From Candidatus Nanohaloarchaea archaeon (GTDB taxonomy: Archaea > Nanohalarchaeota > Nanosalinia > Nanosalinales > Nanosalinaceae): a DNA stretch of 63,413 nt. The notes under the pieces were generated by a model, which made no database searches, was not told the DNA's origin, and saw nothing but the letters and a program-made list of their open reading frames with translations. Location of the stretch: positions 1-63,413 of the forward strand of contig JBEQBQ010000005.1 of assembly GCA_041639695.1 (NCBI GenBank), given 5' to 3'. The position numbers and the translations under genes are program-made. This document shows, piece after piece, positions 3,053-40,952 of this stretch. The stretch's first letter is position 1; every line of letters begins with the position of its first letter.

Positions 3053-3131
3053 AGTGTAGAAACGGGTTTTCAGAATGAAGTTAGTTTCGAAAGAAAAAAC
3101 TGATTTATTGTTTACGGATTCTAAGACTTTT

Positions 3132-4031
3132 ATGTCGGAAAATGACGAGTCTGATAGGCTTGACTCCAGATTGCAAGAACAGTCTGGACACAGATTCGTC
3201 AGTCATGATCTAGATGAAGATGTCAATCATCTCTCTTCAAACATCTTCAATCTGGTAAAAGAACAGAAAGGTGTTGAAGCAGCCGCCAAAGTTCAAACTG
3301 GTTTTGTAGAAGCTTATCAGTTTCTTGAAGGTAGAAAAGACAGCTTTAATCCTTCTGTAGGTCCTGATTCGGCAATCGAGTATCTGGAGGAAATTCGTCA
3401 AGACTACGATGTTTCAAGGCTTTCGGCAGAAGATATGTGTGCTGAAAAGGTTCTAGATAAGGCAATTCATCTCGGAAAAGTGGGTAGGGCGCTTGAAAGA
3501 TTGAAAGACGACTATAAAAATGAGAGAGACCGGTATGTGTCGGCAGATATTCTTCTCCCCCCGTCTGATAATGTCGAGTATGAATGGGACGGTTCTGAAG
3601 AGTTAGAGGAGGCAATTTCAGATATGAAGATACCTGGAAATGAGCTTTGGGGTCTTAGTCATACACTCGACAAAAATGACCGTGATCATGCCAAAGGTTC
3701 TGGAAACTTTACAATACGGGCCGGTACTTACGGTCTTGAAGAGTTTGAGGAACAGTTTGAATGTGCGGACGATCCTGATGGCTACTTATGGATGGAGTTC
3801 GTCAGTGAGGGCGGCTCATATCCCAGAGGGAAAAAGATGACCGACCTAACTAGTTTTGATCCTTTAGATAGCTCCGGTCTAGGACTTTATGCGTGGGATG
3901 CAACCGTTAAGGAGTTTGGTGGCGGCCATTTCATATATGAGAGAGACGGAAACTTCGTTGATGGAATTATTCTACCTTACAGGGAAGAACAAAACGAAGA
4001 CGAAAAGAAAAAATTGGCTTCGCCTGTTTGA
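3132..4031 (+). CDS. Hypothetical acidic protein (orphan)
   Basis: Long ORF (track 3075..4031). ATG at 3132 is preferred from promoter spacing. No recognised family. Confidence 0.75.
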
Positions 4032-4685
4032 TTACTCGTCTGCAAGCATTTGAACTACTAGCTGCAGTATTTCTACGAAGACTCCCATGAAAGCTGTGTA
4101 AAGACCTATAGCGTTAAGGAAAGGTGTTCCTGGCCTTGTCTTCGTAACATAGATCTGATGAATCAGGTAAACTATGAAGCCTAGAAGGGCGAGCACGAAA
4201 GCAATCATTACTGCGGTCCCGCTAAAGCTTCCTAGGAACGAGATGCCTAAAACACCAAGGAATAGGTAGTTTGCGTACTTACCCCAGCTGGAGAAGTCGT
4301 GGCCGGTTCCGTAAACTAATAGTCCTGAAAGCAAGGCTATAACCGAAGAAACAACAGCTGTTATTCCAAGCGCTGCTGCCTGCAAACCAGGGGAAACGAG
4401 CATCGTCAGTATACCGGCTCCAAAGATGCCGTAACCTAGCTGTACTAGTCCGGTTCCTGCTACAGCTTTCTTGATGTTTCCTGCCTTTATACCGGATCTT
4501 GAGATCCAGAGCCCTCCGCTCAAGAGCGCTCCGTAGACAAGTACGCCTACGAAGAAGTTGAATCCGAATACCATGTCATTAATGCCGGAAAGGGGTGTGA
4601 ATACAAACATCCACATTATTCCGATGTTTAGAAGTATTAGGCCTGTAGCTATACCCAGACTTTTCAGTTGATCTTGATTAAACAT
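4032..4685 (-). CDS. Bax inhibitor-1/YccA-like multi-pass membrane protein
   Basis: About 7 hydrophobic helices, DFSSWG motif and C-terminal AIGLYTAFMGVFVEILQL. Start placed at ATG 4685. Confidence 0.7.
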   Translation of the reverse strand: MFNQDQLKSLGIATGLILLNIGIMWMFVFTPLSGINDMVFGFNFFVGVLVYGALLSGGLWISRSGIKAGNIKKAVAGTGLVQLGYGIFGAGILTMLVSPGLQAAALGITAVVSSVIALLSGLLVYGTGHDFSSWGKYANYLFLGVLGISFLGSFSGTAVMIAFVLALLGFIVYLIHQIYVTKTRPGTPFLNAIGLYTAFMGVFVEILQLVVQMLADE

Positions 4686-4754
4686 GTTAGAACAATTTTC
4701 TGGAATTGTTTTAATTCCGACGGATTCAAAACCTTCCGTTCCCAAGATCCGGTT

Positions 4755-5354
4755 ATGGAGGAAAGAGAACTTCCCGGAAAGTTTATTGTTGTCGAGGGCG
4801 CTGACGGCGCAGGAACGACAACCATGTCGAAGAAGCTAGCTGACAAGATTGATGCTTACTGGACCCGGGAGCCCGCGGAAAACAAGATTGGGGAAAAAGT
4901 CGATGAGATGATCTCGGGGGACGAACACTCTCCTGAAGCTATCGCACTAGGATTTGCAGCTGACAGAATGATCCATCTAGAAGAAGAGGTAATACCGAGA
5001 TTAGAAAAGGGAGAAACCGTTGTTTCAGATAGATATTATCATTCATCGCTTGTCTACCAGCATGCGATGGGTATCGATATGGAGTGGCTGAAAAAGATCA
5101 ATCGCAGAACGCTCAAACCAGATCTTACATTTATACTTGATGTGGAGGCGGAAACAGGTATGTCCAGAGTTGAGGAAAGAGGACACGATGGAAATATATT
5201 TGAAGAGCTTGATTTCCAGCAAAAAGTCGTCTTAGGGTACAGAAGACTGGAAAACGAGATTGATGAAGATATCAGTTATGTTGATGCTTCTCAGTCGAAA
5301 AAGCAAGTCTTCAAATCGGTAAGGAAAGGTCTTGAATCAAGAGATTTTGCTTAA
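4755..5354 (+). CDS. tmk: Thymidylate (dTMP) kinase
   Basis: FIVVEGADGAGTTT P-loop variant, TREP, AADR, SDRYYHSSLVYQ and PDLT motifs. Confidence 0.93.
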   Translation: MEERELPGKFIVVEGADGAGTTTMSKKLADKIDAYWTREPAENKIGEKVDEMISGDEHSPEAIALGFAADRMIHLEEEVIPRLEKGETVVSDRYYHSSLVYQHAMGIDMEWLKKINRRTLKPDLTFILDVEAETGMSRVEERGHDGNIFEELDFQQKVVLGYRRLENEIDEDISYVDASQSKKQVFKSVRKGLESRDFA

Positions 5355-5399
5355 CGTTTTTTATTCGGTCTTAACCCGTTCTAGAATATAGGTAACGAC

Positions 5400-6952: not shown

Positions 6953-7561
6953 ATGTCTCGACAAACTGTGTTCATTAACGGAGGAATGACTTTCGAGACT
7001 AGGAAGGACTACCTCGAATATCTGGAGAATATGGATATAGATCTACAAAGTGAAGAGACATGGGATGAAGGTAATTATCTTGAGAAAAGCCTGAAATCAG
7101 ATCTTGTAAGGGTAGATATGCCCTGTAGCACAAACGCAGAGTACGAGGAATGGAAGATAACATTCGAGAATTATCTGTCCAAACTTTCCGGCCGGCTTGT
7201 TCTTATTGGGTTTTCTTTAGGCGCCACATTCCTCGCAAAGTATCTATCGCAAAATAATCTATCGCAGAAAGCGATCTCTGTGTATCTGGTGGCGCCACCC
7301 TTTGACGATGATCTAACTGGAGAGGACTTGGCAGGAGGATTCCCATTAAACCCGGATCTTAGTCTTCTTGAGGAAAATTGTGAGAAACTCGTACTATTAT
7401 TCTCTGAAAACGATGATGTGGTTCCGGTAAATCACGCTAAGAAGTTTGAGCAAAGTCTCTCTGAAGCGGACATTTTAGTCTTTGAGGATAAGGTAGGTCA
7501 TTTCCAGGTTCCTGAGTTCCCCGAGCTCTTGGAGAAAGTAAATGAGGATCTAGGTTCGTAA
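6953..7561 (+). CDS. Alpha/beta hydrolase, RBBP9/YdeN-like
   Basis: GFSLG nucleophile elbow, SENDDVVP acid and GHF histidine. Confidence 0.85.
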   Translation: MSRQTVFINGGMTFETRKDYLEYLENMDIDLQSEETWDEGNYLEKSLKSDLVRVDMPCSTNAEYEEWKITFENYLSKLSGRLVLIGFSLGATFLAKYLSQNNLSQKAISVYLVAPPFDDDLTGEDLAGGFPLNPDLSLLEENCEKLVLLFSENDDVVPVNHAKKFEQSLSEADILVFEDKVGHFQVPEFPELLEKVNEDLGS

Positions 7562-7782: not shown

Positions 7783-8700
7783 ATGGTTACTCCTGAAGAG
7801 GTTGGCGAATGCCCTGTATGCGGCTCCGAGGAGTTTGAGGAGGATAAAACTCTGGGTGAGACTGTCTGCCGGAACTGCGGTGCTATAATAGAGGAGGATA
7901 TGGTCGAAGAGGAAGGCGGTCCAAGAGCTTTCACACAGGAAGAGAAAAACAAGATAGAGCGCACAGGAGCACCTCTGACATTCACGAAGCACGACAGGGG
8001 GATATCAACCCAAATGGGTTCAGGTGGAGCGCTTAGAAACGTATCACCATCCAAAAGAGGCCAGTACTACCGTATAAGAAAATGGAACCGCAGACTATCA
8101 GGTTCCAAGCCTAGAAACCTACGTTATGCGCTCTCCGAGATACAGACGCTCGTAGATCTGTTGAACCTGCCTAGATCGGTTCACGAAGAATCCGCAAGAC
8201 TTTACGAAAAATCTTGGGAGGACGAAGCGCTTAAAGGAAGAAAGATCGAGAAAATAGTGGCGGGAATAGTTTTCCTTGTCTCAAGGATGCAAGGTGTTCC
8301 GAGAACTTTGAAAGAGGTAGCTGAAGCATCAGGAGTGGATAAACGTGAGGTAGGGAAGAACTATCGTTATATTGCGAGAAAACTGGATAAACAGGTGATG
8401 CCTGCTAGACCGGAAGAGTTTGTCTCCAGGTTCGCTGAAGAACTTGATCTGCCTGGAGAGGTGCAGGCATATGCTAAAAACATAATCGAAGAAGTAAGAG
8501 AGAAAGAAATACTGTCGGGTAGGAGCCCTGAAGGCGTTGTCGCATCAGCACTTTACATCGCTTCTAAACTTGAAGGGGAAGATAGACCCCAGAAGGATAT
8601 CGCTGAGACGGTAGGAGTAACTGAGGTCACGATAAGGAAAGGTTACAAGGACTTCGTTGAGGCTCTAGAGTTAGAGAAAGAGATGGAAGGTGCCCGCTAG
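7783..8700 (+). CDS. tfb: Transcription initiation factor IIB
   Basis: CPVC..CRNC zinc ribbon, ERTGAP B-reader, two cyclin repeats and VGVTEVTIRK HTH. Confidence 0.97.
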   Translation: MVTPEEVGECPVCGSEEFEEDKTLGETVCRNCGAIIEEDMVEEEGGPRAFTQEEKNKIERTGAPLTFTKHDRGISTQMGSGGALRNVSPSKRGQYYRIRKWNRRLSGSKPRNLRYALSEIQTLVDLLNLPRSVHEESARLYEKSWEDEALKGRKIEKIVAGIVFLVSRMQGVPRTLKEVAEASGVDKREVGKNYRYIARKLDKQVMPARPEEFVSRFAEELDLPGEVQAYAKNIIEEVREKEILSGRSPEGVVASALYIASKLEGEDRPQKDIAETVGVTEVTIRKGYKDFVEALELEKEMEGAR

Positions 8701-9581: not shown

Positions 9582-11486
9582 TTACTTTAGATCTGACTTG
9601 CCTGGGGGCATGGCCCTCATAATGTAGTCTAGATCGAGATCATTATCGAATCTTTTCTGGACTTTCTTCGCGATATCCGACTTCTTTTCGTGTCCGGGTA
9701 TAATCTCTACTGCTTTCCCGCAGTGCTCTTCTACAGCTTCCTTCGGACCGCACATAGGAACAAAAATATCTTCATCTATCTCGTACGCGCCTATAGCTGC
9801 TTCTACAGAGACATTACGGATGTACTCTCTTTCACCTCTTATTACGAATGCTCCTTTCGCCAGGTACTCGCCGGACTCCGCCTCTTGCGTAACCTGATCT
9901 GGTTCGACGTAGTAAACGTCATCAGCACCGATACCGGCTTTCCAGGTCTTTGTGAACGTAACTGCGGCCTTAGCAGCCTCTCTTCTGGTCTTTTCACCTG
10001 CTTCTTGTCCGTCCTTCACTACTACGGAAGGCGCTCCATCAAAGTTGGCGTGGAAGTAAAGATCGTTTTTCTCCATGTGTTTCTTCACAAGCATCTCGTT
10101 GGTCTGTACGTCTCTACCCATTAAGACCAGGTAATCCTCCGAGGATCTGAACCAGCGGTACTTCTCGAACCATTCCTTTTCCCGTTTCTGGGACTTGTCT
10201 TCCATAACTTCATCGAGGTCTATATCCTGTTCGCCAAGCTCTTCCAGCTGTTTCTCCACGTTTTCAAGTGCCTCTTTCGCACTTTCGATCTTGCTTTCTG
10301 ACTCCTTGGCCTTGTCATATAGCTCGGAAGCGGTTGCCTCAAGGTCCTGGAAAAGACTGATCTTCAAAGTTTTGTCTCCTACATCTATTGAAATGAATTC
10401 TTCCTGCTCGTTCATCCCTTTTATTTTCTCAATATCTCCGTGATCCTCGTCGCTTTCCTTGGCCTCCTCAATCTTCTCCCTTGTTTCAGGCCAGGAATGT
10501 TCCTTTACTGCGTTTTCAAACTCGGTCTTCAGTTTTTCCAGTAGCTGGTAGTTCTCGTATATGGATTCCGCGTCCTCCCGCTTCTGTTCGGCGGACTTCT
10601 TCAGACCCTCAATCTTCCTTTCCATCTGCTGTTTCTGACGTTCCAAACCATCTTTCTCTTCTTTGTAGACCTTCCTTCTCTTCCTTTCCTCTTTCCGCTT
10701 CTCCCGGCGGTAGAAAAACTCGTCCAAGGCCGTACTAAACAAGTCGAACTCCTCTACTTCAAGACCGGAATACTCCTCAAGCGGGAAAGGCGAAGCCCGC
10801 TTAAGCTCCCTATCATCACTATAAACCCGGGGAGAGCGTTCACCCGTAATAATATCTTCAATCTCCTGGTTAATCCTCTCTACTTCCTCTTGCTCAAGAT
10901 CTCCAACTTCGGTATGTTTGTCAATATCTGCACGCGAACACACTTCCTCAGCATAAGTACCTCCCAGACTCAAGTCTGAAGCAATACTTCTAACCACTTC
11001 TCCCTCACTCAAGTTTTCAACATAGTCATCCATCTCTCTTGGATCGGGGGCAGGATCCGGGTAGACATATTCTTCTCCGACCTCGATTATCCTGTCGGCC
11101 CACTGTTCCTGCCTTAAAGCGCCGATTATCTTCCCGTCCTTTACTAGGATAAAGTTGCCTTTTCCAAAGATCTCACAGATCAGTTTGGTGTCTCCAGACT
11201 TCAGTTCAAGTATTCTGTCAAAACCTCTCTGTTTAACTTCATCGAGTTTTCCTAAATGTTTTCTAAGTTCCATCGCGAAGCCTGGCGGCTTTGTGGGATT
11301 GTCTCGCTTATACTTAGACAGGAAAGCGTAGCTAGTACCGATTAAAAGCCTCTTTTTTCCCTCTCCGCCGATGTAGACCTCGACCGTTAACTCCTTGTCT
11401 CTCTGATAAACTTTCTGGACGTGACCTCTCTCCAACTGCTTGAAGTCGTCCATCAGTAGTGAAAGATCGAGGCTTGTAAGTTCCAT
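9582..11486 (-). CDS. rqcH: Ribosome quality control protein RqcH/NEMF (NFACT family)
   Basis: FDRIL, EIFGKGNFIL, WFEKYRWF, GRD..TNE and GEYLAKGAFVIRG motifs. Confidence 0.93.
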   Translation of the reverse strand: MELTSLDLSLLMDDFKQLERGHVQKVYQRDKELTVEVYIGGEGKKRLLIGTSYAFLSKYKRDNPTKPPGFAMELRKHLGKLDEVKQRGFDRILELKSGDTKLICEIFGKGNFILVKDGKIIGALRQEQWADRIIEVGEEYVYPDPAPDPREMDDYVENLSEGEVVRSIASDLSLGGTYAEEVCSRADIDKHTEVGDLEQEEVERINQEIEDIITGERSPRVYSDDRELKRASPFPLEEYSGLEVEEFDLFSTALDEFFYRREKRKEERKRRKVYKEEKDGLERQKQQMERKIEGLKKSAEQKREDAESIYENYQLLEKLKTEFENAVKEHSWPETREKIEEAKESDEDHGDIEKIKGMNEQEEFISIDVGDKTLKISLFQDLEATASELYDKAKESESKIESAKEALENVEKQLEELGEQDIDLDEVMEDKSQKREKEWFEKYRWFRSSEDYLVLMGRDVQTNEMLVKKHMEKNDLYFHANFDGAPSVVVKDGQEAGEKTRREAAKAAVTFTKTWKAGIGADDVYYVEPDQVTQEAESGEYLAKGAFVIRGEREYIRNVSVEAAIGAYEIDEDIFVPMCGPKEAVEEHCGKAVEIIPGHEKKSDIAKKVQKRFDNDLDLDYIMRAMPPGKSDLK

Positions 11487-11529
11487 AACTAAGGTTAGAA
11501 AGGTGAGTTACAAAAAGCTGGATGCTTGT

Positions 11530-12792
11530 TTAATCCGCTGTAACCGGTTTTGAGCTTGAGACTTCGATTTCGGTTTCGGAACTTTCGTGTTCCAATTGGG
11601 GTTCTATATTTTCTGCCAGGGTCTCTCCGGTCAATTCTGATTCGTATTTGTCCTTGAAAGCTCCAGGTATTGAGTAAGCTATAGTTGCAGACTTGTACGC
11701 AGGCAAGGCCATTATACCAAGACTATCGGTGGCCAGTTCTTTTGCTTTTCCTTTGGGGTTCTCCGATTCTAAAGCTTCCCCTCTGGCTGCTGCGTTTACA
11801 TATGCCCCTGCGGTAAGTAAAGTGGCTGTTCCGTACGCGGTAGCTGCAGCCTCTACTTCTCCTGTGGCTGCGACTTCTGCTGCTTTCTCGTAAAGCATCG
11901 GTGAAAGCAGCGTTCCTCCTATGTCTGCTGTAAGAACTGCACCGTATCTACTTGGGCTTAGTGCTGATTTGATATGACTCCAAGGCTTCTCGGAGACTGC
12001 ATTAATCTGGCCTTTAGCCCAGGTTCTTCTCTGTTTTAGGTGTTCTTTAGGTTTTTCCGGAGCTATTGTGTTTATCTGCAGAGCTGGAAGATATTCGATA
12101 TTTTCGCCCATCTCCATCTGGAGTATGTTGGTTAGTTCTCTGTCGTCTCCGGCGTAGTTGCCGCTGTGTTCTTCCATGGCGTCCTTTATTTTCTCAGTTT
12201 TGCCTAGTGTTGCTGTTCCTGAAGCAGTTACAATTCTAGAGTTCTCACCGTTTGAAGTGATTCGATCCACTCCACGTCTCATCGTATATTCGAGCTCCTG
12301 CATCTTCTCGTAAAAGTTTGCTACAACTCCGTCGCCGGCAGTTTCAGGTATCATTCTAGTCATAGCTGCTGCCGAGTCCGTAGAGTCGAACTCCAAAACG
12401 GCTTGATCTATGCTTTTCGGGTTCTGGATATAGGAGTCGGCATCTATTGAAAGCCAGTAATCTTCTTCCATCTGGTCGGTGCAGTGTTTCTGGGCTCCGA
12501 ACTTCCCTGTGTTCTCATCCATCTCTATGAATTCCAGTTTTTCGGACTCTGAAGCGAATTCTTCTATTATTTTGGCCGTAGAGTCTTCGGATCCATCGTC
12601 TACCGCGTAAGCTGTCTCGTAGAGATCGGAATTTTCGACTGCTTCATCGAGATTTGTCAGTGTCTTTTCTACTATGTCTTCTTCGTTGTAGAAACAAGTT
12701 ACTGAGCCTAGAGAAGGCAAGTCTTCGTAAGGGTCTTCTCCGACTTGTTGTATTCCCTCGGCCTGTAGGTGAGAGTTCCGAAACGAATCCAT
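11530..12792 (-). CDS. Processive GT2 glycosyltransferase (hyaluronan synthase/NodC-like motifs)
   Basis: DDGSED, IDADS, GDDRELTN and QRRTW, i.e. the D,D,D,QxxRW set with one substitution. Confidence 0.85.
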   Translation of the reverse strand: MDSFRNSHLQAEGIQQVGEDPYEDLPSLGSVTCFYNEEDIVEKTLTNLDEAVENSDLYETAYAVDDGSEDSTAKIIEEFASESEKLEFIEMDENTGKFGAQKHCTDQMEEDYWLSIDADSYIQNPKSIDQAVLEFDSTDSAAAMTRMIPETAGDGVVANFYEKMQELEYTMRRGVDRITSNGENSRIVTASGTATLGKTEKIKDAMEEHSGNYAGDDRELTNILQMEMGENIEYLPALQINTIAPEKPKEHLKQRRTWAKGQINAVSEKPWSHIKSALSPSRYGAVLTADIGGTLLSPMLYEKAAEVAATGEVEAAATAYGTATLLTAGAYVNAAARGEALESENPKGKAKELATDSLGIMALPAYKSATIAYSIPGAFKDKYESELTGETLAENIEPQLEHESSETEIEVSSSKPVTAD

Positions 12793-12797
12793 TTATA

Positions 12798-12817
12798 TTG
12801 TTACTTTGCCATAACAA
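12798..12817 (-). promoter_or_regulatory. Perfect palindrome TTGTTA-N8-TAACAA between the TATA box and start of the GT2 gene
   Basis: ttgtta-ctttgcca-taacaa. On the minus strand TTTTTATG lies immediately upstream and the ATG 5 nt downstream. Confidence 0.6.
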
Positions 12818-12944
12818 CATAAAAATGTTGTGGTTCTGTCCGAGCCAAAAAAGATCCGGGCTTGTAAGATCCAAATGGGAGGACAGAGTTTGAATGTCCA
12901 GGAACTTAGGTAGATTTATCTTAATTTCAAGGAATATTATTTCT

Positions 12945-13436
12945 ATGAAATCTGAAGAGGCAGAAGTAGTTTTTCACTTTGACAAGGATTATCGTGAGGG
13001 GGTTATGGACGGTAATTTAGATAGTTGGATTGAATTATCCGTGCGGGCAGACGATACCTATATCTATGGTAAGGATAAGAGCGGAGTGACTGGATATGCT
13101 GACAATATTCTTATTCAGCTACTTGAGTCAGTAGAAGCTATTGAGAAAGGACGTAAGTATATAGTGGAGTTTGAATTTGGACCGACATGGCTGTCGATCG
13201 AACCTAAAGAGGGAAATAAAGTGAGAATTGTCGGAGCTACCACTTTAAATGGTGCTAAAAATCCTGAAGAGCGGTTAGATATTGACATAAGCAGAGAGGT
13301 ATCACAAGAATCGTGGAAGGCTGCAGTACGCCGGTCTTCTGGTGTGTTCATTAATGAAGTTCTAAAGTTAAATCCAGAGCTAAGAAGCCAAGATTTTGTC
13401 CAAAAAGTTCAAACAAAAAGGGATAAACTGTTTTAG
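12945..13436 (+). CDS. Hypothetical protein (AT-rich)
   Basis: ORF track 12894..13436; ATG 12945 is preferred. No family recognised. Confidence 0.65.
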   Translation: MKSEEAEVVFHFDKDYREGVMDGNLDSWIELSVRADDTYIYGKDKSGVTGYADNILIQLLESVEAIEKGRKYIVEFEFGPTWLSIEPKEGNKVRIVGATTLNGAKNPEERLDIDISREVSQESWKAAVRRSSGVFINEVLKLNPELRSQDFVQKVQTKRDKLF

Positions 13437-13455
13437 TTTAGGTAAGGCGGTTTTT

Positions 13456-18824: not shown

Positions 18825-19337
18825 ATGATTCTCAACAAGCAAGGTCTTAGAAACGCTATAGAAGACGGTCTCGTACAGGAATATGTCCATTTAGAAACGC
18901 AGCTACAGCCAAACGGTTTCGACATGACGGCCGGAGAAATACACAGGTACAAAGGAAAAGGCAAGCTCGACTTCTCAAACTCAGAAAGAGAAATACCTGA
19001 GACAGAGAAGGTCGAACCTGTCAAAAAGAACGAGGACGATGACTACGGCTGGTGGGACCTAGAACCGGGAGTTTACAAAGTTGTTATGAATGAAAAAGTC
19101 GACATACCGAACCACATAACGGCTTTAGCATTTCCAAGAAGCTCTCTGCTGAGAATGGGCTGTACTATAGAAAATGCGGTATGGGACTCTGGATATACAG
19201 GTACTGGCAGCTTTATGCTAGAAGTTCATAACTCTGAAGGCGTTGAGATCAAAGAGAATGCACGGGTGAATCAGTTAGTCTTTTTCGAGATGGATGAAAC
19301 CGAGGAGGGCTACTCGGGGATCTATAACGAGGACTAG
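18825..19337 (+). CDS. dUTPase / dCTP deaminase family
   Basis: QPNGFD, PRSSLLRMG, AVWDSGYTG and RVNQLVF motifs of the archaeal trimeric dUTPase type. Confidence 0.9.
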   Translation: MILNKQGLRNAIEDGLVQEYVHLETQLQPNGFDMTAGEIHRYKGKGKLDFSNSEREIPETEKVEPVKKNEDDDYGWWDLEPGVYKVVMNEKVDIPNHITALAFPRSSLLRMGCTIENAVWDSGYTGTGSFMLEVHNSEGVEIKENARVNQLVFFEMDETEEGYSGIYNED

Positions 19338-19338
19338 T

Positions 19339-20028
19339 TTATCTGAGTCGAGGATCCTCTTTCTCTATCCTTTTTGCCCATTTGCCTATCGTTGGGACCG
19401 AAACATCGGCTGCATTTGAGATCTGTTCCTGCGTCAAGCCCAGGTTTTCTGTCTGGCTTCCGAGATAGACCGATGCTGCTGACAAAGATTTAGGGTTGGT
19501 CTTTCCGTGAAACTCTGAGTAATCAAAAATATCATCCAGTTCTGATGCCTGTTTATGAGCGGCCTTCGATAGGTGGTGCCTTGTGTCTGCTATGGTGCTT
19601 AGGGGGGCCGTGTAATCACCTAAACCTTCCGGAGTGTAATCAGTTGCTATGACTGTGCTTCCGGGGTCTCCATCAATCATAAATGGAATCGAGTGCTCTA
19701 CGGACGGAACCTTGGACTGGAAGTGGTATACGGCATCTATGCTAAGAAGATCGGTTTCATTTTCGAGAAGTTCTTGATCTGTAATATCTTCTGGATTTCT
19801 GCCGTCTAGAAGCTGGTACGGGGTAATCGGCTCTCCTTCGTCCACGGAGGTGCTGTATATTATTCCTTTAGCAATATTCTCTGAGTCTAGTTCAAGGGCA
19901 TCCTCATATCCCAGAGACAGGATGTAATCTGCCCTATCTTGGTAGGTTTCTCTGGATTTTTCTTCGATACCTTCTGGTATATCAAGTTCTTGGGTGGCTT
20001 GATCCCAGTTTTTTGACGACATGGACAA
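19339..20028 (-). CDS. Divergent TFB-like cyclin-repeat protein lacking the zinc ribbon
   Basis: C-terminus GKTNPKSLSAASVYL...LTQEQISNAADVSVPTIGK parallels TFB GRSPEGVVASALYI...PQKDIAETVGVTEVTIRK. Confidence 0.7.
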   Translation of the reverse strand: MSMSSKNWDQATQELDIPEGIEEKSRETYQDRADYILSLGYEDALELDSENIAKGIIYSTSVDEGEPITPYQLLDGRNPEDITDQELLENETDLLSIDAVYHFQSKVPSVEHSIPFMIDGDPGSTVIATDYTPEGLGDYTAPLSTIADTRHHLSKAAHKQASELDDIFDYSEFHGKTNPKSLSAASVYLGSQTENLGLTQEQISNAADVSVPTIGKWAKRIEKEDPRLR

Positions 20029-20108
20029 ACATTAATCACAAAATTTTATAACTGCGATGTAATAAATAAGTACATTTACTTAGTTTCAAATTAATTCGTT
20101 TAACTTAT

Positions 20109-20197
20109 TTGATTGTTCGATGATGAGGTACTGACATCGTCTGATTCCCGACCTAAAGGGAGTATGATGACACATGAACACCTCTGAGAGCGATCAA
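20109..20197 (+). ncRNA. Box C/D methylation-guide sRNA (dual guide)
   Basis: C box ATGATGA 20120-26, D' CTGA 20141-44, hairpin TTCCC/GGGAG, C' ATGATGA 20164-70, D CTGA 20184-87, terminal stem TTGATTGTTC/GAGCGATCAA. Intergenic. Confidence 0.9.
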
Positions 20198-21760: not shown

Positions 21761-22111
21761 ATGTCGAACGAACGAGAAGAGCTTTACGTAAGGGTCGACG
21801 GATACCGGGTATTATTACAGGACTTGGAAGCAGTTAACCAGATAATCGAGAACATCCATGAAGCCTCAGAAGTTCTTTCCCAGGTAAGAGATGTCAAGGA
21901 GAAATCAATCGACACAATCTACGAGAACATCGACAGATTGAACGAGAAACTCGAGGATATTGAGATGGAGATGCCTGAGGTTGATGGTGCTCCGACAGTC
22001 GAATACGCGCCTGAAGAACACGAGCAACCGGAAAGGATCGATGACTCGGTTCAGGAGCTTCACTCTGAGCTTGAGAACCTGCAGAGCGAGTTAAGCGATC
22101 TTGGTAAGTAA
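21761..22111 (+). CDS. Small acidic coiled-coil hypothetical protein
   Basis: 116-aa ORF with heptad pattern and native codon usage. Confidence 0.75.
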   Translation: MSNEREELYVRVDGYRVLLQDLEAVNQIIENIHEASEVLSQVRDVKEKSIDTIYENIDRLNEKLEDIEMEMPEVDGAPTVEYAPEEHEQPERIDDSVQELHSELENLQSELSDLGK

Positions 22112-22176
22112 GGGATTTATGGAAACTTTTTGTAGAGGTACTGGATAGTTGAAGGACTTAACCGATAACTATTTAT

Positions 22177-22196
22177 TTGTTACCGTATAGTAATAA
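22177..22196 (+). promoter_or_regulatory. TTGTTA-N8-TAATAA palindromic site
   Basis: 11/12 match to the 12798 palindrome; follows TATTTAT and ends 3 nt before the ATG. Confidence 0.55.
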
Positions 22197-22199
22197 GAC

Positions 22200-23204
22200 A
22201 TGTATCCTGGTTTCGAAACCGAAAAACCCGATAATTATGATGAACTGAAACAAGCCTTCGAGTCCAGAGTTACGACAGAAAAACCTAGTGGTCTTCTAAA
22301 AGGCCCTGAAAAGAATGAATTCTATGACGATGCCTCGGAAGAGTTCGGCATATATCTCTTCGAAAACGTTCACGATGGCGAAAATTCTATAGAAGACTGC
22401 CTCTATGTCCTAGCGGATTCAGACAAATATTCGTTCACAAAAGATATGAGGACTATTGCTTCCCGAGCCCTTAATGAGGTAATAAAAAGAGCTACAGAAA
22501 GCTACTCGCCTACACTTGAGAAGACAACAAACATCGGAGGGGAAACAGAATTTGCCGAGAAAGCTATAGAACATTTTCAGGAGGCAAATCCGGATTTAAA
22601 AGCAGATGAGATGAACAGACTTATTGATAAGACTGTTGAAGTTGAAGGAGATTCATATCAGGAATTTATGACCGAGTATGGCGAAGCAGAAGTACTAAAT
22701 GAGTTTGAATCCTTTAGCCAAGAAATTCTAAGAGAAACCTTTGGGAGCGGCGTAAAGTTTCCTCTCGTAAAAGGGATAGGTTATCGTAAAATCGCCCAAA
22801 CTGATCCTGACGGCCCTATAAGCCAATTTGATTCAGAGGAAGTAACTAGAGAGGAATTTGCCGAGATAATGGCTAACCATGTTCGAAGTAACGGGCTGAA
22901 AATAGGAAGACCTCAGCTGGATTCCTGGACCACAGATCCTGAAACAGCAAATTTCTTCGCAGACAGTATTTCTGATCGCCATAAAGGCGTTTATATCGAA
23001 CAATCGGTTGATATAGAGAATATAGCGTTTTCCTGTATCACTACACCCTCGCTCCTTGGAGAATCTGAGTTTAGGTTAAGCGATGGGACTGAGCAATTCA
23101 ACTCGGATCAATATCATATTAGGGCTGGAAACGAGGAAGACAACCTTTTCGAGCATGAAGCTCTCAGACTTTATAATGGCCTTGAGAGTCAAGGATTTTT
23201 CTAA
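22200..23204 (+). CDS. Orphan protein with putative C-terminal ADP-ribosyltransferase-like domain
   Basis: LVKG...DSWTTDPETANFFA...GESEF order resembles R-S-E ART motifs, with K in place of R. Confidence 0.5.
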   Translation: MYPGFETEKPDNYDELKQAFESRVTTEKPSGLLKGPEKNEFYDDASEEFGIYLFENVHDGENSIEDCLYVLADSDKYSFTKDMRTIASRALNEVIKRATESYSPTLEKTTNIGGETEFAEKAIEHFQEANPDLKADEMNRLIDKTVEVEGDSYQEFMTEYGEAEVLNEFESFSQEILRETFGSGVKFPLVKGIGYRKIAQTDPDGPISQFDSEEVTREEFAEIMANHVRSNGLKIGRPQLDSWTTDPETANFFADSISDRHKGVYIEQSVDIENIAFSCITTPSLLGESEFRLSDGTEQFNSDQYHIRAGNEEDNLFEHEALRLYNGLESQGFF

Positions 23205-23239
23205 AATGGAAGTATTACCTTAACTAGAAATGGTAATTG

Positions 23240-23360
23240 TGCCGGGGACAAGATTTGAACTTGCGAACCCCTAAGGGAGCAGATCTTGAGTCTGCCGCTT
23301 CTAACCCTTCCAGAGTTCTCCGAAGAGACTCGTGGAGATTGGCCACTTAGCTACCCCGGC
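23240..23360 (-). tRNA. tRNA-Leu (CAA) with a 38-nt D-loop intron (23301-23338)
   Basis: Acceptor GCCGGGG/CCCCGGC+A, anticodon arm GCAGA-CTCAAGA-TCTGC, long variable arm, TTCAAAT. Intron flanked by a BHB (helix GGCC/GGTT, bulges AAT and AGA). Confidence 0.92.
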
Positions 23361-23510
23361 CTACAGAAATAACTCTTTAAACAAATTCTTTTGAATTCCA
23401 CTACTCGACACTTTCCAGAACTTCCTCAATCGAATCAATAAGATGGGTTATAATCTGGGGCGATATAGAAATCCATCTTAAATCAAATTAGAAAGGGGAT
23501 GAAGAAAAGT

Positions 23511-24126: not shown

Positions 24127-25041
24127 CTAACTCTTCGACATCTGTTCAAGCATCTTCCTCTGCCGCTCAACGTAGCTTCTGTACCTCTCAACTTCATCTT
24201 CATCGCCGGATCTAGAGATCCTCTTCAAACACCAGACGATGTTGAATACATGCCTGATTCTCTTCGCATTATCCAGCTCTTCGTTAAAATTTTCTGATTT
24301 GGACAGTTTCTTCCTGTAACTTCTTCTGATCCTGTTCTTCTGCTTCTCACTAGGTTGGCTATGAGCAAGCACTATACCAAGATCGGAGAACCGGTTCAGG
24401 TTGAAGCCTGCGAACTCCCAGTCAATCAAGTAGAAATCTTGCTCAGTTCTTCTCGTGCTGTTGGAAAGATCCGAATGCGTAAGAAACGCTTCCGAACCAT
24501 CTCCGGAACCAAGTTTTTCCTCAAGATCCCCAATAATTCTCTCCAACAAATTATCTAGCTCTGTCTCTGCGGAAACCGAATTAAGATCTTCACGGAGACT
24601 TTCCAGCTTTTGGAGAGGATGCTCCGGTTCTTTGTATTCGAAGTTCCGCTCTTCACAGTAGGTCCTGTAATCATCAAATTTCAGGCTGTTTATCTCCAGA
24701 AGCTTTTCTGTCCACAGATCTATTTCCTGCTCGTTCAGTTGCCCGAGCCTTACATCTTCCTCGCCGACGAAGGTAATGACGTGTAGCTCTTTTCCAGGAT
24801 CGTAGAAAACTGAGCGAGGAACGTTAACTACATCTTTGAACTCCAGAAACTCTAGAATGTTTCTCTCATTTCTGAGGCTTTGATCTTCGGAAACCTGTTT
24901 CTTCTTACGCAGAACATACTTCTGATCTCTAGACCTGAAAATGAAGTTGTAATTGTTGTCTCCGTCCTCTCTTCCAAGAATTTCGAAGCTCTCGAACTCT
25001 TTGACTTGTTTCAAGTGTTCTTTTGCAGAAGAGATATCCAT
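24127..25041 (-). CDS. APH/choline kinase family phosphotransferase
   Basis: YVLRK, HSDLSNST (Brenner-like) and LIDWEFAG..DLG motifs. Confidence 0.85.
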   Translation of the reverse strand: MDISSAKEHLKQVKEFESFEILGREDGDNNYNFIFRSRDQKYVLRKKKQVSEDQSLRNERNILEFLEFKDVVNVPRSVFYDPGKELHVITFVGEEDVRLGQLNEQEIDLWTEKLLEINSLKFDDYRTYCEERNFEYKEPEHPLQKLESLREDLNSVSAETELDNLLERIIGDLEEKLGSGDGSEAFLTHSDLSNSTRRTEQDFYLIDWEFAGFNLNRFSDLGIVLAHSQPSEKQKNRIRRSYRKKLSKSENFNEELDNAKRIRHVFNIVWCLKRISRSGDEDEVERYRSYVERQRKMLEQMSKS

Positions 25042-34074: not shown

Positions 34075-34866
34075 TCACCTGTCGTCCTCAAATTTAATAT
34101 CGCCTAATGACTTGCTTAACGGTACAGATCTATAGATATCGTAGAGTGCCTGCGCATCGCGGTCAAGATCATCGTAATTCTCTCTTCCATTTACTCTGCT
34201 GTAATCGGCAGGGCTGAGTACGTCTTTCAGTCCTAGGTTCTCGTTATGGAACTGAATTCTTACTTTCTTTCCGTCGCTCCAGGCATCAAAATGACTGCCT
34301 GTGTAATGACTATCGCCGAATGCTGTCTCGGTAGATAAACTGGGTTGGTTATCAAGGCCATGGATCTGAACCACTTTCTTACCGTCAATAACGTATTTTT
34401 CGACAGGATGTATTTTTTCCCTATCAAACTCTTGTGCTTCCTCTAGGCTAAATTCTTCTTCAAGTTGTTGAAGCTGAGAGTCCATCTGGCGAAGTTCGTC
34501 CTCTTCCAGTCTTACTTCTGAACCTGACGTGTAAGGGTTCAGGAGCTTGTATAAAGGGTTATCCATGTCCAAGGATTCAAGGCTCTCGTATGGTATCTGT
34601 GAGAATCTGTCCGGGGTTTCTCCACCATTAAAGATTGTTTCCATCTCTTCCGCTATCTGTGAGGGTGGAGGTCCGTCTTCGGGGTAGATGGCTGCCTCGA
34701 TGATTCCTTCTTCTTGTTTCAAGTTGATCTCCCAGCCTCCACCCATTCTTTCTTCCAAAGGCGAGCCTCTTGACAGGGTATCTATTTCAGGCCCAACTGC
34801 TGCAGCGCCTAGAAGGCTCCCGAGAAAGCTTCTACGGCTCTGCTCAAAACTGTCTTCGTCACTCAT
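34075..34866 (-). CDS. Orphan protein with twin-arginine-like N-terminus
   Basis: From the internal ATG: MSDEDSFEQSRRSFLGSLLGAAAV. ORF track 34075..34926. Confidence 0.65.
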   Translation of the reverse strand: MSDEDSFEQSRRSFLGSLLGAAAVGPEIDTLSRGSPLEERMGGGWEINLKQEEGIIEAAIYPEDGPPPSQIAEEMETIFNGGETPDRFSQIPYESLESLDMDNPLYKLLNPYTSGSEVRLEEDELRQMDSQLQQLEEEFSLEEAQEFDREKIHPVEKYVIDGKKVVQIHGLDNQPSLSTETAFGDSHYTGSHFDAWSDGKKVRIQFHNENLGLKDVLSPADYSRVNGRENYDDLDRDAQALYDIYRSVPLSKSLGDIKFEDDR

Positions 34867-34888
34867 TTCTTTAACAGGCCTTTTATTC

Positions 34889-35401
34889 TCAATAATTGTT
34901 CTCTGATATTCTTTCGAAGGTTTCAAGAGTGTCTTTCAGTTCTGATTCGTCTAGATCGTGCAGAGTTTTCCTTCCCTCCACAACATCTCGTGCGTAACCG
35001 TCCAGATTCCCCACACTTTCGTGAGGGATGTTGTAGTTACGTTCTTCTGAACCAATTCTAACTCCGATCCGTGTTCGATCTTCTCTTCGCACCCAGGAAA
35101 AACCATGTACACACCTTTGGTAAGGCTCTAATATTCTGTCCTTAGCCTCGAAAAGTGTCTCTCCTTCCTCCAAGCTGCCTTCAGAAAGCTGTTCCAGCTC
35201 CTGTGATACATCTTGCCATTCTTCCTCGGTATAGGAAGTAGGGTCATCCAGTAGTGTATGAACTCTGTCCCTATGTTCGCTTGGGATCAAGTAGCTGAAT
35301 TCTCCGTTCTGTGTCGTCACTTCTACAGCTGATACAACGGAATCAAATGTGTGGCTGTACCGGAATGCAAATGATTTCGAATTTTCTTCACGGTCTGACA
35401 T
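34889..35401 (-). CDS. Orphan acidic hypothetical protein
   Basis: 170-aa ORF with its own TATA box and palindromic site. Confidence 0.7.
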   Translation of the reverse strand: MSDREENSKSFAFRYSHTFDSVVSAVEVTTQNGEFSYLIPSEHRDRVHTLLDDPTSYTEEEWQDVSQELEQLSEGSLEEGETLFEAKDRILEPYQRCVHGFSWVRREDRTRIGVRIGSEERNYNIPHESVGNLDGYARDVVEGRKTLHDLDESELKDTLETFERISENNY

Positions 35402-35404: not shown

Positions 35405-35424
35405 TTGCTATTACTGAGTAACAC
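35405..35424 (-). promoter_or_regulatory. GTGTTA-N8-TAGCAA palindromic site
   Basis: 10/12 match; follows TTTTAA and ends 3 nt before the ATG at 35401. Confidence 0.5.
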
Positions 35425-36996: not shown

Positions 36997-37788
36997 CTAA
37001 GACTTGTCGTATTGTGTCTCTTCTGATCCTCCTTCAATACATTCCACGGTCAATATCTCACCGGATTGTTCCGAGTGCCCTAGTATGTGATGTTCGAAAT
37101 TCGGGATATCATAACTGGAACTGACCTGTGTAAGCACATCGTAAAACTCGTCGGGATTGTCATTTACGTGGTTGTATATGGTAGAAATTGTCTCTTCGTC
37201 TGATATTACCTGAACGGATGGCCGTGTAAGAAAATTCTCGAACATGGGTTTCCCGAAGGGGTTAGTCTCAGTTTCGTATGGCATGTTTAAGCCGAATAAT
37301 GCGTAATGGGCTTTTCCTCGGGATTTAGATTCATCGAGAGCGTCTTTGAGCTTTGCACGAGGTCCAAGAAATCCTTCCAGCCATTCATCAACAACAGGTA
37401 AAGCTGGTTCTTCAAGAGTGAGTTTGGATAGTTTGCCTCTGGCAAGTAGTTCTCCGAGAAGAGCTGTTTCGTCTCCGGGGGTATAATTATCTATTCTGTC
37501 AGGATCAACGATCTCAGTTATATCGTTATTTGCGTTCTCTATGTAGGGCGAATTAAACAGGTGCATCCTGTTTCCGTCGGCACGGTTTTGGGAGAGGTTG
37601 TCGGTAAAGCGCCTGAAACCTAGCCCTTTATGCGCCATCCTTGGTCCGGGGTCCTGGTCATAGGCATTATACCAGTCGTCGTTCAGCTTCGAATGTTTTC
37701 CGACACCATGAATGTAAATTTCCATTCCAAAATCGGGGTCTTCAGCGAAAGTTTCTGATTCAAGGTCGAGATTTTCGAGATCGGTCAT
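36997..37788 (-). CDS. Orphan hypothetical protein
   Basis: 263-aa acidic ORF inserted between eS31 and kae1. Confidence 0.7.
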   Translation of the reverse strand: MTDLENLDLESETFAEDPDFGMEIYIHGVGKHSKLNDDWYNAYDQDPGPRMAHKGLGFRRFTDNLSQNRADGNRMHLFNSPYIENANNDITEIVDPDRIDNYTPGDETALLGELLARGKLSKLTLEEPALPVVDEWLEGFLGPRAKLKDALDESKSRGKAHYALFGLNMPYETETNPFGKPMFENFLTRPSVQVISDEETISTIYNHVNDNPDEFYDVLTQVSSSYDIPNFEHHILGHSEQSGEILTVECIEGGSEETQYDKS

Positions 37789-37899: not shown

Positions 37900-38049
37900 C
37901 TACTCGTGCTTCGTGTAACCACATTTGCCGCAGCTCTTGCGGTCGCCGTGGTCTGCTAGGAAGCTTGAGCATCGAGGACACTTCTCCGTGTCTGTGGTTC
38001 CGTCCTCGTCGTACTTCTCCCATCGCTCAACTTTCTCGTGTTTTGCCAT
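37900..38049 (-). CDS. rps27ae: 30S ribosomal protein eS31 (S27ae)
   Basis: [19 protein letters not shown]; follows eS24. Confidence 0.95.
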
Positions 38050-38056
38050 TAGTGAA

Positions 38057-38497: not shown

Positions 38498-38507
38498 AGT
38501 ATTGTTT

Positions 38508-38696
38508 TTACCTCGTTCGAATTGCGTATCTTCCTGGTGTCTGGATTTCAAGCTGTTCAGCGATCTCTGAACCTTCCGGATCGTAGATCACGACAAGCCC
38601 GCTCCAGTTCTCGGATAGATCGTTGTTTTTACATACAGGGCATTCGTCGGAGTCCTCGACGATCCTGTTACATTCTTTACATGCGCGTTCTGCCAT
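38508..38696 (-). CDS. spt4: Transcription elongation factor Spt4 (RpoE2)
   Basis: ACKEC..CPVC, WSG..I.DPE.SEIA and PGRYA motifs. Confidence 0.95.
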   Translation of the reverse strand: MAERACKECNRIVEDSDECPVCKNNDLSENWSGLVVIYDPEGSEIAEQLEIQTPGRYAIRTR

Positions 38697-38711
38697 CTTC
38701 TTTCTACCTCT

Positions 38712-39290: not shown

Positions 39291-39366
39291 CTTTTTTACC
39301 TCTAAAACAAGTACAGTCTCGTTCGCAAGCTTTAAATTGGGTTTGTCTTCCCTGTTTCGAGAAGGT

Positions 39367-39750
39367 TCACAGGTTCTGTGAACGCCTGTTCACAACCTCG
39401 AGATGGTTGCTCTGCCGGATAATGATGACGGGATTGCCCTTCTCGAGGATCCTCTGTTTCAGTTCCCTGTCGTTTGTGGCGATGACATACTCGTCCGAGA
39501 GCTCCACTAGCAGGTCATCTACGGTTCCTTCTCCCTCGGTCTCCAAAATTTCAATGGACTGCTCCTCCAGGAACTTTTCCACGAGCTGTCCGTACTTGCC
39601 TTTCTCGATGCTCTTCGCCTCCTGCACCGCATCGTCGATAGTGTAGAGCTCGTGGAAAGGGTAGAGTCTCTCGATCTCGTCGAACAGAGAGAACGAGAGC
39701 TGGAACGGCGCCACGAGAAAGTTCGTGTCGAGTATGATTTTGGGGTCCAT
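39367..39750 (-). CDS. PIN domain protein (Fcf1/Utp24-like)
   Basis: ILDTNFL, VDD and ATNDRELK motifs; conserved position upstream of rpoE1. Confidence 0.9.
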   Translation of the reverse strand: MDPKIILDTNFLVAPFQLSFSLFDEIERLYPFHELYTIDDAVQEAKSIEKGKYGQLVEKFLEEQSIEILETEGEGTVDDLLVELSDEYVIATNDRELKQRILEKGNPVIIIRQSNHLEVVNRRSQNL

Positions 39751-39753
39751 TTT

Positions 39754-40845
39754 TTACGTTCTCCATTCTTTCGAGGTGCTGTTGATGGTTTTGTTTCCTT
39801 CTTCCGTTATGACTACTGTGTTCTCGACTTTTACTCCGAAATCTTCTCTCAGGTAAATTCCTGGTTCAATCGTTAACACCATGCCTGGCTTTAATTCTTG
39901 TTCGTTTCCTCTTACTACTGAAGGTCTTTCGTGTGTTGATCGGCCAAGGCCATGCCCTGTCGAAGTAATGTAGTTGTCGCCGTAACCTTTTTCTTCTATA
40001 AAACTTCTGGCGGCATCCCCAACGGATCCTGCTGTATTTCCTGGCTTAGCTTTATCAAGCGCTTTTTCGTAACCCTTATTAACTGTTTTAAATAAATCTT
40101 TGAACTTTTTGGAAGGTTCTCCGCTAAAGACCAAGGTTCTGGCGCAATCGCTGCAATAATTTTCGTATGTTGTACCTATATCGAGCACTACAGGCTCACC
40201 TTCTTCTATAACTTTGTCTCCTGGCTTATGAAATACTTCGGAGCCGTTCTCTCCAGCCGCTACTATAGGTCTGAACGCGGGCTCTTCACCTCCTTTCTCT
40301 CGAAACTTTGATAATATGAGATCTGCGACTTCCTTCTCGGTCATTCCAATCACGTCTTCAGATCTGAGATCCTCTATAACAAGGTCGGTTATCTCCGCCG
40401 CCTTTTCAAGTACTTCAATTTCTTCGGGCAACTTTTCCTGTTTAAGCTCCTGTAGAAGGTTTTCACCGCTTTCTGTGCATCTATCTAGTTTTTCCTCGAT
40501 CTTTCTGCCATGTGCATGGTACATGAAGTCGTCTAGAAGCACTTTTCCTTCGGTCTGACCAAAGTATGATTTTATAGTATCGTATGCTTTTTTAGGGCTC
40601 TGCCAGACCTCTATACTGTCTATGTATGAGTGGTTCTCCAGCTGTTCCTCCATTAGTTTGGGGGCCACGAACATTGGTTCCTTCGCTGGTGAGAGCAACA
40701 GGAAGACTTCGAAAGCCTTCTTCTCGTACTCAAAGCCAGATAGGTATCCCATGTCGGGACCTACGGAAATCACCATTCCCGCAGCTTCTTGCTGGTTTAT
40801 TTTCTTTTTGAGTTTCTTCTGTCTCTTCAGGACAGTCTTTTTCAT
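39754..40845 (-). CDS. M24 family Xaa-Pro peptidase
   Basis: LDIG, SDCART, GHGLG..THE, IEPG and VEN metal ligands. Start at ATG 40845 is preferred. Confidence 0.92.
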   Translation of the reverse strand: MKKTVLKRQKKLKKKINQQEAAGMVISVGPDMGYLSGFEYEKKAFEVFLLLSPAKEPMFVAPKLMEEQLENHSYIDSIEVWQSPKKAYDTIKSYFGQTEGKVLLDDFMYHAHGRKIEEKLDRCTESGENLLQELKQEKLPEEIEVLEKAAEITDLVIEDLRSEDVIGMTEKEVADLILSKFREKGGEEPAFRPIVAAGENGSEVFHKPGDKVIEEGEPVVLDIGTTYENYCSDCARTLVFSGEPSKKFKDLFKTVNKGYEKALDKAKPGNTAGSVGDAARSFIEEKGYGDNYITSTGHGLGRSTHERPSVVRGNEQELKPGMVLTIEPGIYLREDFGVKVENTVVITEEGNKTINSTSKEWRT

Positions 40846-40932
40846 AAACAAGGCTTTCTTTCCGAAGAGATATAATCTTTTATTAGGTAAACTTCCCGAA
40901 CTAAAAGTTGGGGTCATGCCAAAAACTTAAAT

Positions 40933-40952
40933 TTGTTATCTGGCAATAGTTA
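40933..40952 (+). promoter_or_regulatory. TTGTTA-N8-TAGTTA site
   Basis: Perfect left half (9/12 overall); follows CTTAAAT and ends 3 nt before the ATG at 40956. Confidence 0.45.

Follow-up and report, generated by a model that had tools for sequence, protein, structure and literature searches.

The stretch of DNA analysed here, 63,413 nucleotides of contig JBEQBQ010000005.1 from the assembly GCA_041639695.1 of a Candidatus Nanohaloarchaea archaeon (the window in what follows), carries a palindrome, TTGTTA-N8-TAACAA, which in some of its promoters separates the TATA box from the start codon. To judge from sequence, position and distribution, this cis-element probably exists as such at three or four promoters of a narrow lineage, and we consider it moderately probable that it is the operator of a dimeric repressor, which would bind it and block the loading of the polymerase. 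The credible members are the promoter lying between a GT2 glycosyltransferase gene and the divergent orphan gene p180, the promoter of an orphan gene labelled ART-like, and the promoter of a 344-amino-acid orphan in the closest related locus, L001; the promoter of a 170-amino-acid orphan is probably a further one. An initial annotation of the window had proposed, from the letters alone, that the palindrome marks a regulon of scattered orphan enzymes.

Palindromic sites between the TATA box and the start codon

The A/T content of the 36 window promoters with an ATG start peaks at 0.83-0.86 at positions -29 to -27 from the ATG, with the TATA peak at -30 to -27, and lesser A/T-rich stretches lie at -11/-10 and -8 to -4 (positions -11 to -4 having in general 0.58-0.81). 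This profile fits that of leaderless transcripts, and the motif would therefore fill the interval from the TATA box to where transcription presumably starts: its sites begin at -25 or -23 and end at -6 to -3 from the ATG, the transcription starts being those predicted by the leaderless profile. A new scan returned the same coordinates and match counts as the initial annotation for all sites (the weakest, with 7 matches of 12, being counted by eye), and the placement is also as described there, directly after a TATA-like run in each of the five sites at 12798, 22177, 35405, 40933 and 3108, with 5, 3, 3, 3 and 4 nt, respectively, left before the start codon.

The site at 12798..12817, to which no strand is assigned, reads TTGTTAC-N6-ATAACAA and is perfect, both on TTGTTA-N8-TAACAA (12/12) and on the refined pattern given below (14/14); it ends 5 nt before the ATG of the GT2 gene. 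It is flanked by two opposed, back-to-back TATA boxes. One of them, ATTTTTATG on the minus strand (12818..12826), adjoins the palindrome on the side of p180, serves the GT2 gene at a position that fits the window-wide peak at -30 to -27, and overlaps an ATG at 12825. The other, TTTATA on the plus strand (12792..12797), adjoins the opposite side and overlaps the GT2 start codon (CAT at 12790-12792); from its spacing, it would drive a transcript starting near the ATG at 12825 and running towards p180. The second site, at 22177..22196 on the plus strand (TTGTTACCGTATAGTAATAA; 11/12), stands directly after TATTTAT and ends 3 nt before the ATG of the ART-like gene at 22200. In locus L001, an 11/12 copy at 7185-7204 ends 2 nt before the ATG of the 344-amino-acid orphan; in gene orientation the promoter reads ATTTAAAT, then TTTTTACTTGTTTATAACAA, then AT and the ATG, which is the same arrangement of TATA box, motif and start as in the window. 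These three sites are strong. The site at 35405..35424 on the minus strand (10/12; GTGTTACTCAGTAATAGCAA in gene orientation, preceded by AATTTTAA) is of moderate strength; it lies in an ordinary intergenic gap, contains a 5-1-5 palindrome of its own (TTACT-C-AGTAA) and stops 3 nt short of the start codon at 35401.

Two further sites on the plus strand are doubtful as members. The one at 40933..40952 (9/12) follows CTTAAAT and ends 3 nt before the ATG of the gene at 40956; its left half, TTGTTA, is perfect, and its right half, TAGTTA, matches at 3 of 6 positions and overlaps the presumed TATA box of a divergent M24 peptidase gene whose start is 38 bp away. The one at 3108..3127 (9/12, and 9/14 on the refined pattern) ends 4 nt before the ATG at 3132. 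For this gene the initial annotation had preferred 3132 to the first ATG, at 3075, and the choice is supported by the sole close homologue, which begins at the residue encoded there (an annotated start, not a measured one). The match of about 7/12 at -23 to -4 in the promoter of the gene 36997-37788, counted by eye, is noise.

Counted by eye, the seventh base of the half-site is a pyrimidine in 10 of 12 half-sites, giving the refined motif TTGTTAY-N6-RTAACAA; the centres of its inner core, GTTAY-N6-RTAAC, are 11 bp apart, about one helical turn. When the window and the related loci were searched for this motif with at most 3 mismatches and the ATG of an open reading frame (ORF) of at least 60 amino acids within 30 nt, 23 matches were obtained, 7 of which end 2-5 nt before the ATG. 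The half-sites are kept (12/12, 11/12, 11/12 in L001 and 10/12) and the spacers are unrelated between sites, which favours two recognised half-sites over promoters copied from one another.

Other roles for the palindrome were considered. It is not a basal element of most promoters of the window, being present at 5 of 55 (at most 3 mismatches), and TTGTTA is absent from the position profile. An RNA hairpin, acting as terminator or leader, was rejected: the predicted folds are weak (-0.7 to -3.9 kcal/mol), three of the five bypass the proposed arms, and the z-score falls below -2 at only one of the five sites. It was likewise rejected as a methylation motif, being unrelated to GDGCHC, the motif reported for nanohaloarchaea in PMC11001535.

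Positional enrichment in the promoters of the window

The signal of the motif is positional. In the set of 55 window genes with an upstream gap of at least 20 nt, 2, 3 and 5 promoters match at most 1, 2 and 3 mismatches, respectively, with a match start at -27 to -22. Column permutation, a null that preserves the position-specific composition of the promoters, predicts 0.003, 0.056 and 0.49 promoters, and the observed counts were reached in none of 5000 permutations. An unbiased word count points to the same element, the three most enriched hexamers at -28 to -1 of the window promoters being ATTTGT, TTTGTT and TTGTTA. Over the whole window, 2 matches with at most 1 mismatch were found for 0.07 expected, a number reached by 1 of 100 shuffles.

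Because the motif had been chosen after looking at the sequence, a family-wise test was run in which all perfect 6-Nx-6 palindromes (x = 0-12) in any promoter served as seeds and other promoters were counted if they matched the seed at its own position, give or take 2 nt. Of 10 seeds, TTGTTA-N8 alone had any second promoter. Four of the 55 promoters carry its sites, with starts at -25 or -23 from the ATG, and the permuted maximum reached the observed 2, 3 and 4 promoters in 1.6%, 0.8% and 4.7% of 2500 permutations, respectively. This test used the start at 3075 in place of 3132, the latter being used for column permutation.

The weaker sites fare differently. Chance alone predicts about 0.43 promoters with exactly 3 mismatches at this position, and the Poisson probability of at least two is 0.07; the sites at 40933 and 3108 are therefore individually unproven, and the membership of the 9/12 and 7/12 sites in a regulon, as first proposed, is near chance. 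The statement that housekeeping promoters lack the element holds at the same offset. At other offsets, matches with 3 mismatches lie before the genes for DUF5828, S6e, a photolyase and an MFS protein, and are taken as chance; moreover, the site at 40933 is common to the promoter of the M24 peptidase.

Distribution among nanohaloarchaeal genomes

The window is nanohaloarchaeal, and its SMC protein served to retrieve 32 nanohaloarchaeal loci (L001-L032; 540,536 bases in total) from genome contigs. The closest, L001, belongs to the metagenome-assembled genome Candidatus Nanohaloarchaea archaeon MAG_AT22 (JACOQA01); its SMC protein has 96% identity with that of the window, the DNA identity is 76-81% in most aligned blocks, and the DNA alignment shows a gene order unbroken apart from small differences. 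A Pfam search over the 71 called ORFs of the window found archaeal housekeeping genes mixed with 22 family-less ORFs, and the encoded proteins are acidic (mean D+E of 0.18). Contigs labelled Colwellia polaris (L022) and Candidatus Acetothermia bacterium (L033) encode SMC proteins 73% and 43% identical to that of the window, respectively, and are probably mis-binned.

At the promoter offset, matches with at most 2 mismatches occur at 3 of 55 promoters in the window, 0 of 17 in L001 and 0 of 459 in L002-L032. The lineage specificity claimed for the element is thus upheld, with 3/72 promoters in the window and L001 against 0/459 in the more distant loci (Fisher P 0.0024). This count is conservative, since the site at L001 7185 was left out of the 72 promoters, the TTG start chosen by the ORF caller having left a gap of 18 nt. 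That site is the sole match with at most 1 mismatch in all the bases of the 32 loci. When 3 mismatches are allowed at the promoter offset, the counts are 5/72 and 5/459 (P 0.006). Two of these five distant matches form an orthologous pair (L006 17875-17894 and L008 17969-17988; TTGTCAC-N6-GATACAA), located 3 nt before the ATG of orphans of 516 and 517 amino acids beside the NFACT gene, and may represent a form of the motif that has diverged in a lineage further away.

A general link between palindromes and flexible genes was not seen in these nanohaloarchaeal loci. When 257 of their promoters were examined between the TATA box and the ATG, the best arm match averaged 4.06 in 66 flexible and 3.95 in 155 conserved genes (Mann-Whitney P 0.17), and perfect arms were found at 1 of 66 and 2 of 155 of them, respectively. 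A different arrangement of the same two hexamers was observed in L001, where a perfect everted palindrome, AATAACAA-G-TTGTTATT (1462-1478), lies between the TATA box and the ATG of an APH-like gene (1491); it is not kept at the orthologous promoter of the window (gene 24127-25041).

Genes located behind the palindrome

The genes behind the sites had been described as enzymes, which the family searches do not support. Five of the six claimed targets, that is all except GT2, are without a match in Pfam (E at most 1), NCBIfam or PADLOC, and blastp finds the target proteins unrelated to one another. The three or four palindrome promoters are tied to flexible, poorly conserved genes. Neither GT2, p180 nor the ART-like gene has a tblastn match in any of the 32 loci, and the three segments of the window missing or replaced in L001 are 11518-13443 (GT2 and p180), 22099-23239 (ART-like) and 19336-20115, which carries the gene of a TFB-like protein (19339-20028). 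The slot of this last gene in L001 holds instead the motif-bearing 344-amino-acid orphan. The 170-amino-acid gene has one homologue (H8Z69_00150; 62% identity), and the 299-amino-acid gene starting at 3132 has one of 298 amino acids (H8Z69_06000; 82% identity), both in the L001 genome outside the compared locus; not every claimed target is therefore strain-specific. The bias towards orphans claimed initially stands in so far as L001 has neither GT2 with p180 nor the ART-like gene at the corresponding places; measured by the lack of a Pfam match, it is only borderline, as given below.

The GT2 gene (11530..12792, minus strand) encodes a glycosyltransferase of 420 amino acids (PF00535, E 8e-15), with weak PgaC/NodC-like matches in NCBIfam. 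On its other side, p180 (12894..13436, plus strand) encodes a family-less orphan of 180 amino acids; its single-sequence structure model is poor (pLDDT 53), too poor to help in judging p180 as a possible regulator. A transcript from the plus-strand promoter would give p180 a leader of roughly 69 nt. An ORF of 22 codons (12825-12896) begins 7 nt past the palindrome, and its TGA abuts the p180 ATG at 12894 (TGAATG); GGAGG is found at 12878-12882, 11 nt upstream of that ATG. The stretch 12825-12896 would serve either as a leader that contains a Shine-Dalgarno site or as a small upstream ORF. Furthermore, a direct repeat of 24 nt (21/24) brackets the GT2 gene together with its palindromic promoter, one copy (11462-11485) being the first codons of NFACT and the other (12850-12873) a decayed copy inside the p180 leader, which looks like the insertion footprint of a GT2 module.

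The ART-like orphan (22200..23204, plus strand) is the target of the 11/12 site and has 334 amino acids. It finds only itself in a word-indexed search of 5.8 billion proteins covering near lengths only, 11 remote relatives by phmmer (best 38% identity), and no sequence match in Pfam, NCBIfam or the PDB. Its model, built on the 11-sequence alignment, is confident (pLDDT 87.4). Compared with the folds of the PDB, it reaches E 0.12 at best and none at E of 0.001 or less; among these weak matches ADP-ribosyltransferase toxins, PARPs and KptA recur, and R237, D241, W243 and E290 are invariant in the alignment. The label "ART-like" is a weak lead. The insertion that carries this gene adjoins the 3' end of a tRNA-like element (23240-23362, minus strand). 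These 123 bp are the best-conserved block relative to L001 (92.7%, against about 80% elsewhere) and resemble a tRNA with an insertion, with acceptor-like ends GCCGGGG...CCCCGGC and a possible CAA anticodon loop; the element was not called by ARAGORN and scores 16.9 bits with the Rfam tRNA model, for a threshold of 29.

The 170-amino-acid orphan (34889..35401, minus strand) is the probable target of the 35405 site and is followed by a gene (34075-34926) for a protein of 283 amino acids with a weak match to a TAT signal. Behind the doubtful site at 40933 lies a GGCT-like orphan of 234 amino acids (40956..41660, plus strand). GGCT-family clusters rank first for it in the Atlas language-model feature search (0.92, 182-186 shared features), which is a lead only, and no Pfam match was found at E of 1 or less, GGACT, AIG2 and ChaC included. 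The GC content at third codon positions (GC3) averages 0.49 in the window (sd 0.07); p180, the ART-like gene and the 299-amino-acid gene have values of 0.34-0.37, and the GGCT-like gene has 0.77, which suggests that this last gene was acquired recently from a donor rich in GC, for instance a haloarchaeal host.

It seems that one and the same intergenic slot can receive different cargo from genome to genome. The gap between ScpB and NFACT in L010 (13944-14843) carries different small ORFs, and an extra orphan of 285 amino acids is found in L001 (7755-8612) between the genes of a CWB2 protein and a dCTP deaminase. Around the gene of a helix-turn-helix (HTH) protein of 114 amino acids (55880-56224), the window also contains a run of family-less ORFs (53808-58551), which may be another flexible island and none of whose promoters carries the motif.

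A putative repressor operator and the alternative explanations

Protein binding, repression and co-regulation of the targets are here proposed from the DNA. TTGTTAY-N6-RTAACAA would be bound by a dimeric, sequence-specific DNA-binding protein of the lineage formed by the window genome and L001. Since the operator would fill the 20 bp that separate the TATA box from the start of a leaderless transcript, a bound dimer would block RNA polymerase, and perhaps TFB, from loading, as expected of a repressor site. At the GT2/p180 promoter, one bound dimer would cover both opposed promoters and shut both. Where this could be checked, the credible members are strain-specific genes, each having its own TATA box and operator at the 5' edge.

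Several observations weigh against a repressor operator. The motif was picked post hoc and its good sites number only 3-4. The outer hexamers are spaced 14 bp from centre to centre, an unusual distance for a simple HTH dimer. Over the whole window, 3 matches with at most 2 mismatches were found for 2.55 expected (47 of 100 shuffles reached 3), and 22 with at most 3 mismatches for 27.6 expected, that is without enrichment. The 540 kb of related loci show no enrichment of the motif either, with 15 matches at most 2 mismatches away for about 22 predicted from the scaled shuffle mean. Without the position requirement, the family-wise test returned 7.5%, 11% and 0.17% of 600 permutations. The orphan bias, taken as lack of a Pfam match, is 4/5 against 20/55 (P=0.053). 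Finally, no regulator is tied to the motif. Two candidates had been put forward. For the HTH protein (55880), no link to the motif was found and its own promoter is without it; the gene of the TFB-like protein (19339) is missing from the corresponding slot of L001, which makes it a poor candidate for a factor common to both genomes. The switching-on at host contact that had been suggested for the regulon finds no support in any of these results.

A first alternative is a chance resemblance within AT-rich, position-constrained promoters, one perfect palindrome having arisen at a compact bidirectional promoter and its nearest look-alikes having then been found. It is favoured by the whole-window counts, at or below expectation at 2 and 3 mismatches, by the family-wise probabilities of 0.075-0.11 without position (at most 1 and 2 mismatches) and by the general A/T richness of positions -11 to -4 (0.58-0.81). 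Each half of the GT2 palindrome could simply trail one TATA box of the opposed pair, the right half at 40933 coincides with the neighbour's TATA box, and about 0.5 promoters are expected with at most 3 mismatches at the position, the empirical figure in L002-L032 being 5/459. Chance does not, however, account well for the positional family-wise probabilities of 0.008-0.016, for the independent 11/12 copy at the same promoter position in L001, for the absence of any match with at most 2 mismatches at 459 more distant promoters, nor for the ART-like and L001 sites, which have both halves without a divergent promoter. We regard it as unlikely.

A second explanation is shared descent without shared control, the orphans coming from one donor pool (a virus, a plasmid or the flexible gene pool) whose promoters are of this kind; the palindrome would then need no regulator of the host, or would serve that of the donor. 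GT2 with p180, the ART-like gene and the 344-amino-acid gene of L001 are indeed insertions relative to each other's genomes, with TATA box and motif at their 5' edges. The 24-nt repeat (21/24) of the NFACT 5' end around the GT2 module and the atypical GC3 values of p180, the ART-like, the 299-amino-acid (0.34-0.37) and the GGCT-like (0.77) genes are in agreement with such an origin, and the look-alikes of the ART-like protein in the Atlas are viral hypothetical clusters, a weak lead. On the other hand, the TATA boxes, spacers and flanks differ, so that the promoters are not copies of each other, and the cargo proteins are mutually unrelated. No integrase, transposase or virus gene family was found in the window by Pfam, viral and plasmid collections not having been searched for a donor. 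Above all, a palindrome kept while its spacers are free still implies a binding protein. Common descent alone appears to us quite unlikely.

The TTGTTA word, or a near variant, stands directly after the TATA box at all sites, and the window encodes a full TFB (7783-8700) in addition to the truncated TFB-like protein. The element could thus be conceived as one of promoter selectivity, read just downstream of the TATA box by an alternative basal factor (a TFB paralogue, for example) and having an activating or selecting effect. The reading of DNA by a basal factor is asymmetric, whereas both inverted halves are kept at the ART-like and L001 sites, where no divergent promoter exists. In addition to its absence from the L001 slot, the TFB-like gene has no match in L001, L003, L005, L006, L009 or L010, and its own promoter has only a 3-mismatch match at -37 to -18 that overlaps its TATA box, which is a different arrangement. 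This makes a basal factor very unlikely. Highly improbable, lastly, is a recombination site that inserts single-gene cassettes like the attC of integrons: although the three best sites are found 14-78 nt inward from the edge of a strain-specific insertion and the ART-like insertion adjoins a tRNA-like element, the far ends of the three insertions have neither a second copy nor a half-site, the window has no recombinase family (Pfam), the 35405 site lies in an ordinary intergenic gap, and the fixed distances to TATA box and ATG suit transcription instead.

The operator of a dimeric repressor remains our preferred explanation, and a broader form of it can be formulated, which is speculative and which we hold to be improbable as it stands. 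The flexible gene pool of these archaea would be partly under one dedicated repressor, and single genes would move between strains as modules made of a TATA box, the operator and an ORF. GT2, the ART-like gene and the 344-amino-acid gene of L001 would then sit in different slots of otherwise matching genomes, and a newly acquired gene would arrive already silenced, to be released only on a common signal.

Comparison with known systems and significance

Operators that overlap the core promoter, downstream of its TATA box, are known for several archaeal repressors, such as MDR1 of Archaeoglobus, LrpA and Phr of Pyrococcus and NrpR of Methanococcus. The likeness lies in an inverted repeat that is placed between TATA box and start site, or over them, and is expected to block polymerase recruitment. 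The element described here differs from them by its sequence and by its 6-N8-6 (or 5-N6-5) geometry; its targets are strain-specific orphans and not a metabolic or stress pathway, and the organism carrying it is an uncultivated DPANN symbiont. In Thermococcales, the glycolytic motif TATCAC-N5-GTGATA is bound by TrmBL1/Tgr and represses when located downstream of the TATA box. It is likewise a short palindrome that defines a regulon over unlinked promoters, but half-sites and spacer are different, and its regulon is one coherent pathway found across genera, whereas the targets are here orphans without relation to each other and the motif does not extend beyond one narrow lineage. The basal promoter of leaderless haloarchaeal genes has a TATA box near -27 and an A/T pair near -10. 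The window promoters resemble it, with a TATA box at -30 to -27 and A/T-rich positions at -11/-10 and -8 to -4, and the right half-site of the motif falls in this general A/T-rich stretch; in contrast, the motif is present at 5 of 55 promoters and its left half, TTGTTA, is outside the general profile.

The same words were found in the operator of ST1710, a MarR-family protein of Sulfolobus tokodaii, whose winged-helix domains bind the crystallised promoter DNA (PMC2724296). As described there, this operator contains TTGTTA and TAACAA as a palindrome (ATTGTTAACAAT), with halves that overlap or adjoin each other and lack the 8-bp spacer. Pfam detected no protein of the MarR family in the window, and the shared words may be a coincidence. 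Among the matches listed by a literature search for the half-site words with the term operator, nothing archaeal was found beyond ST1710, and among those listed for promoters and transcription factors of Nanohaloarchaeota, no description of such a cis-element was found. From these searches, gene regulation in DPANN archaea looks largely undescribed.

The palindrome is a lead resting on three or four sites. If confirmed genome-wide, it would give a first handle on a nanohaloarchaeal regulon, and the motif would flag strain-specific orphans that are switched together, candidates for host interaction or surface variation. Should single genes also prove to travel as modules that arrive with their operator, a DPANN symbiont with a reduced genome would thereby have a sequence-specific counterpart of xenogeneic silencing.

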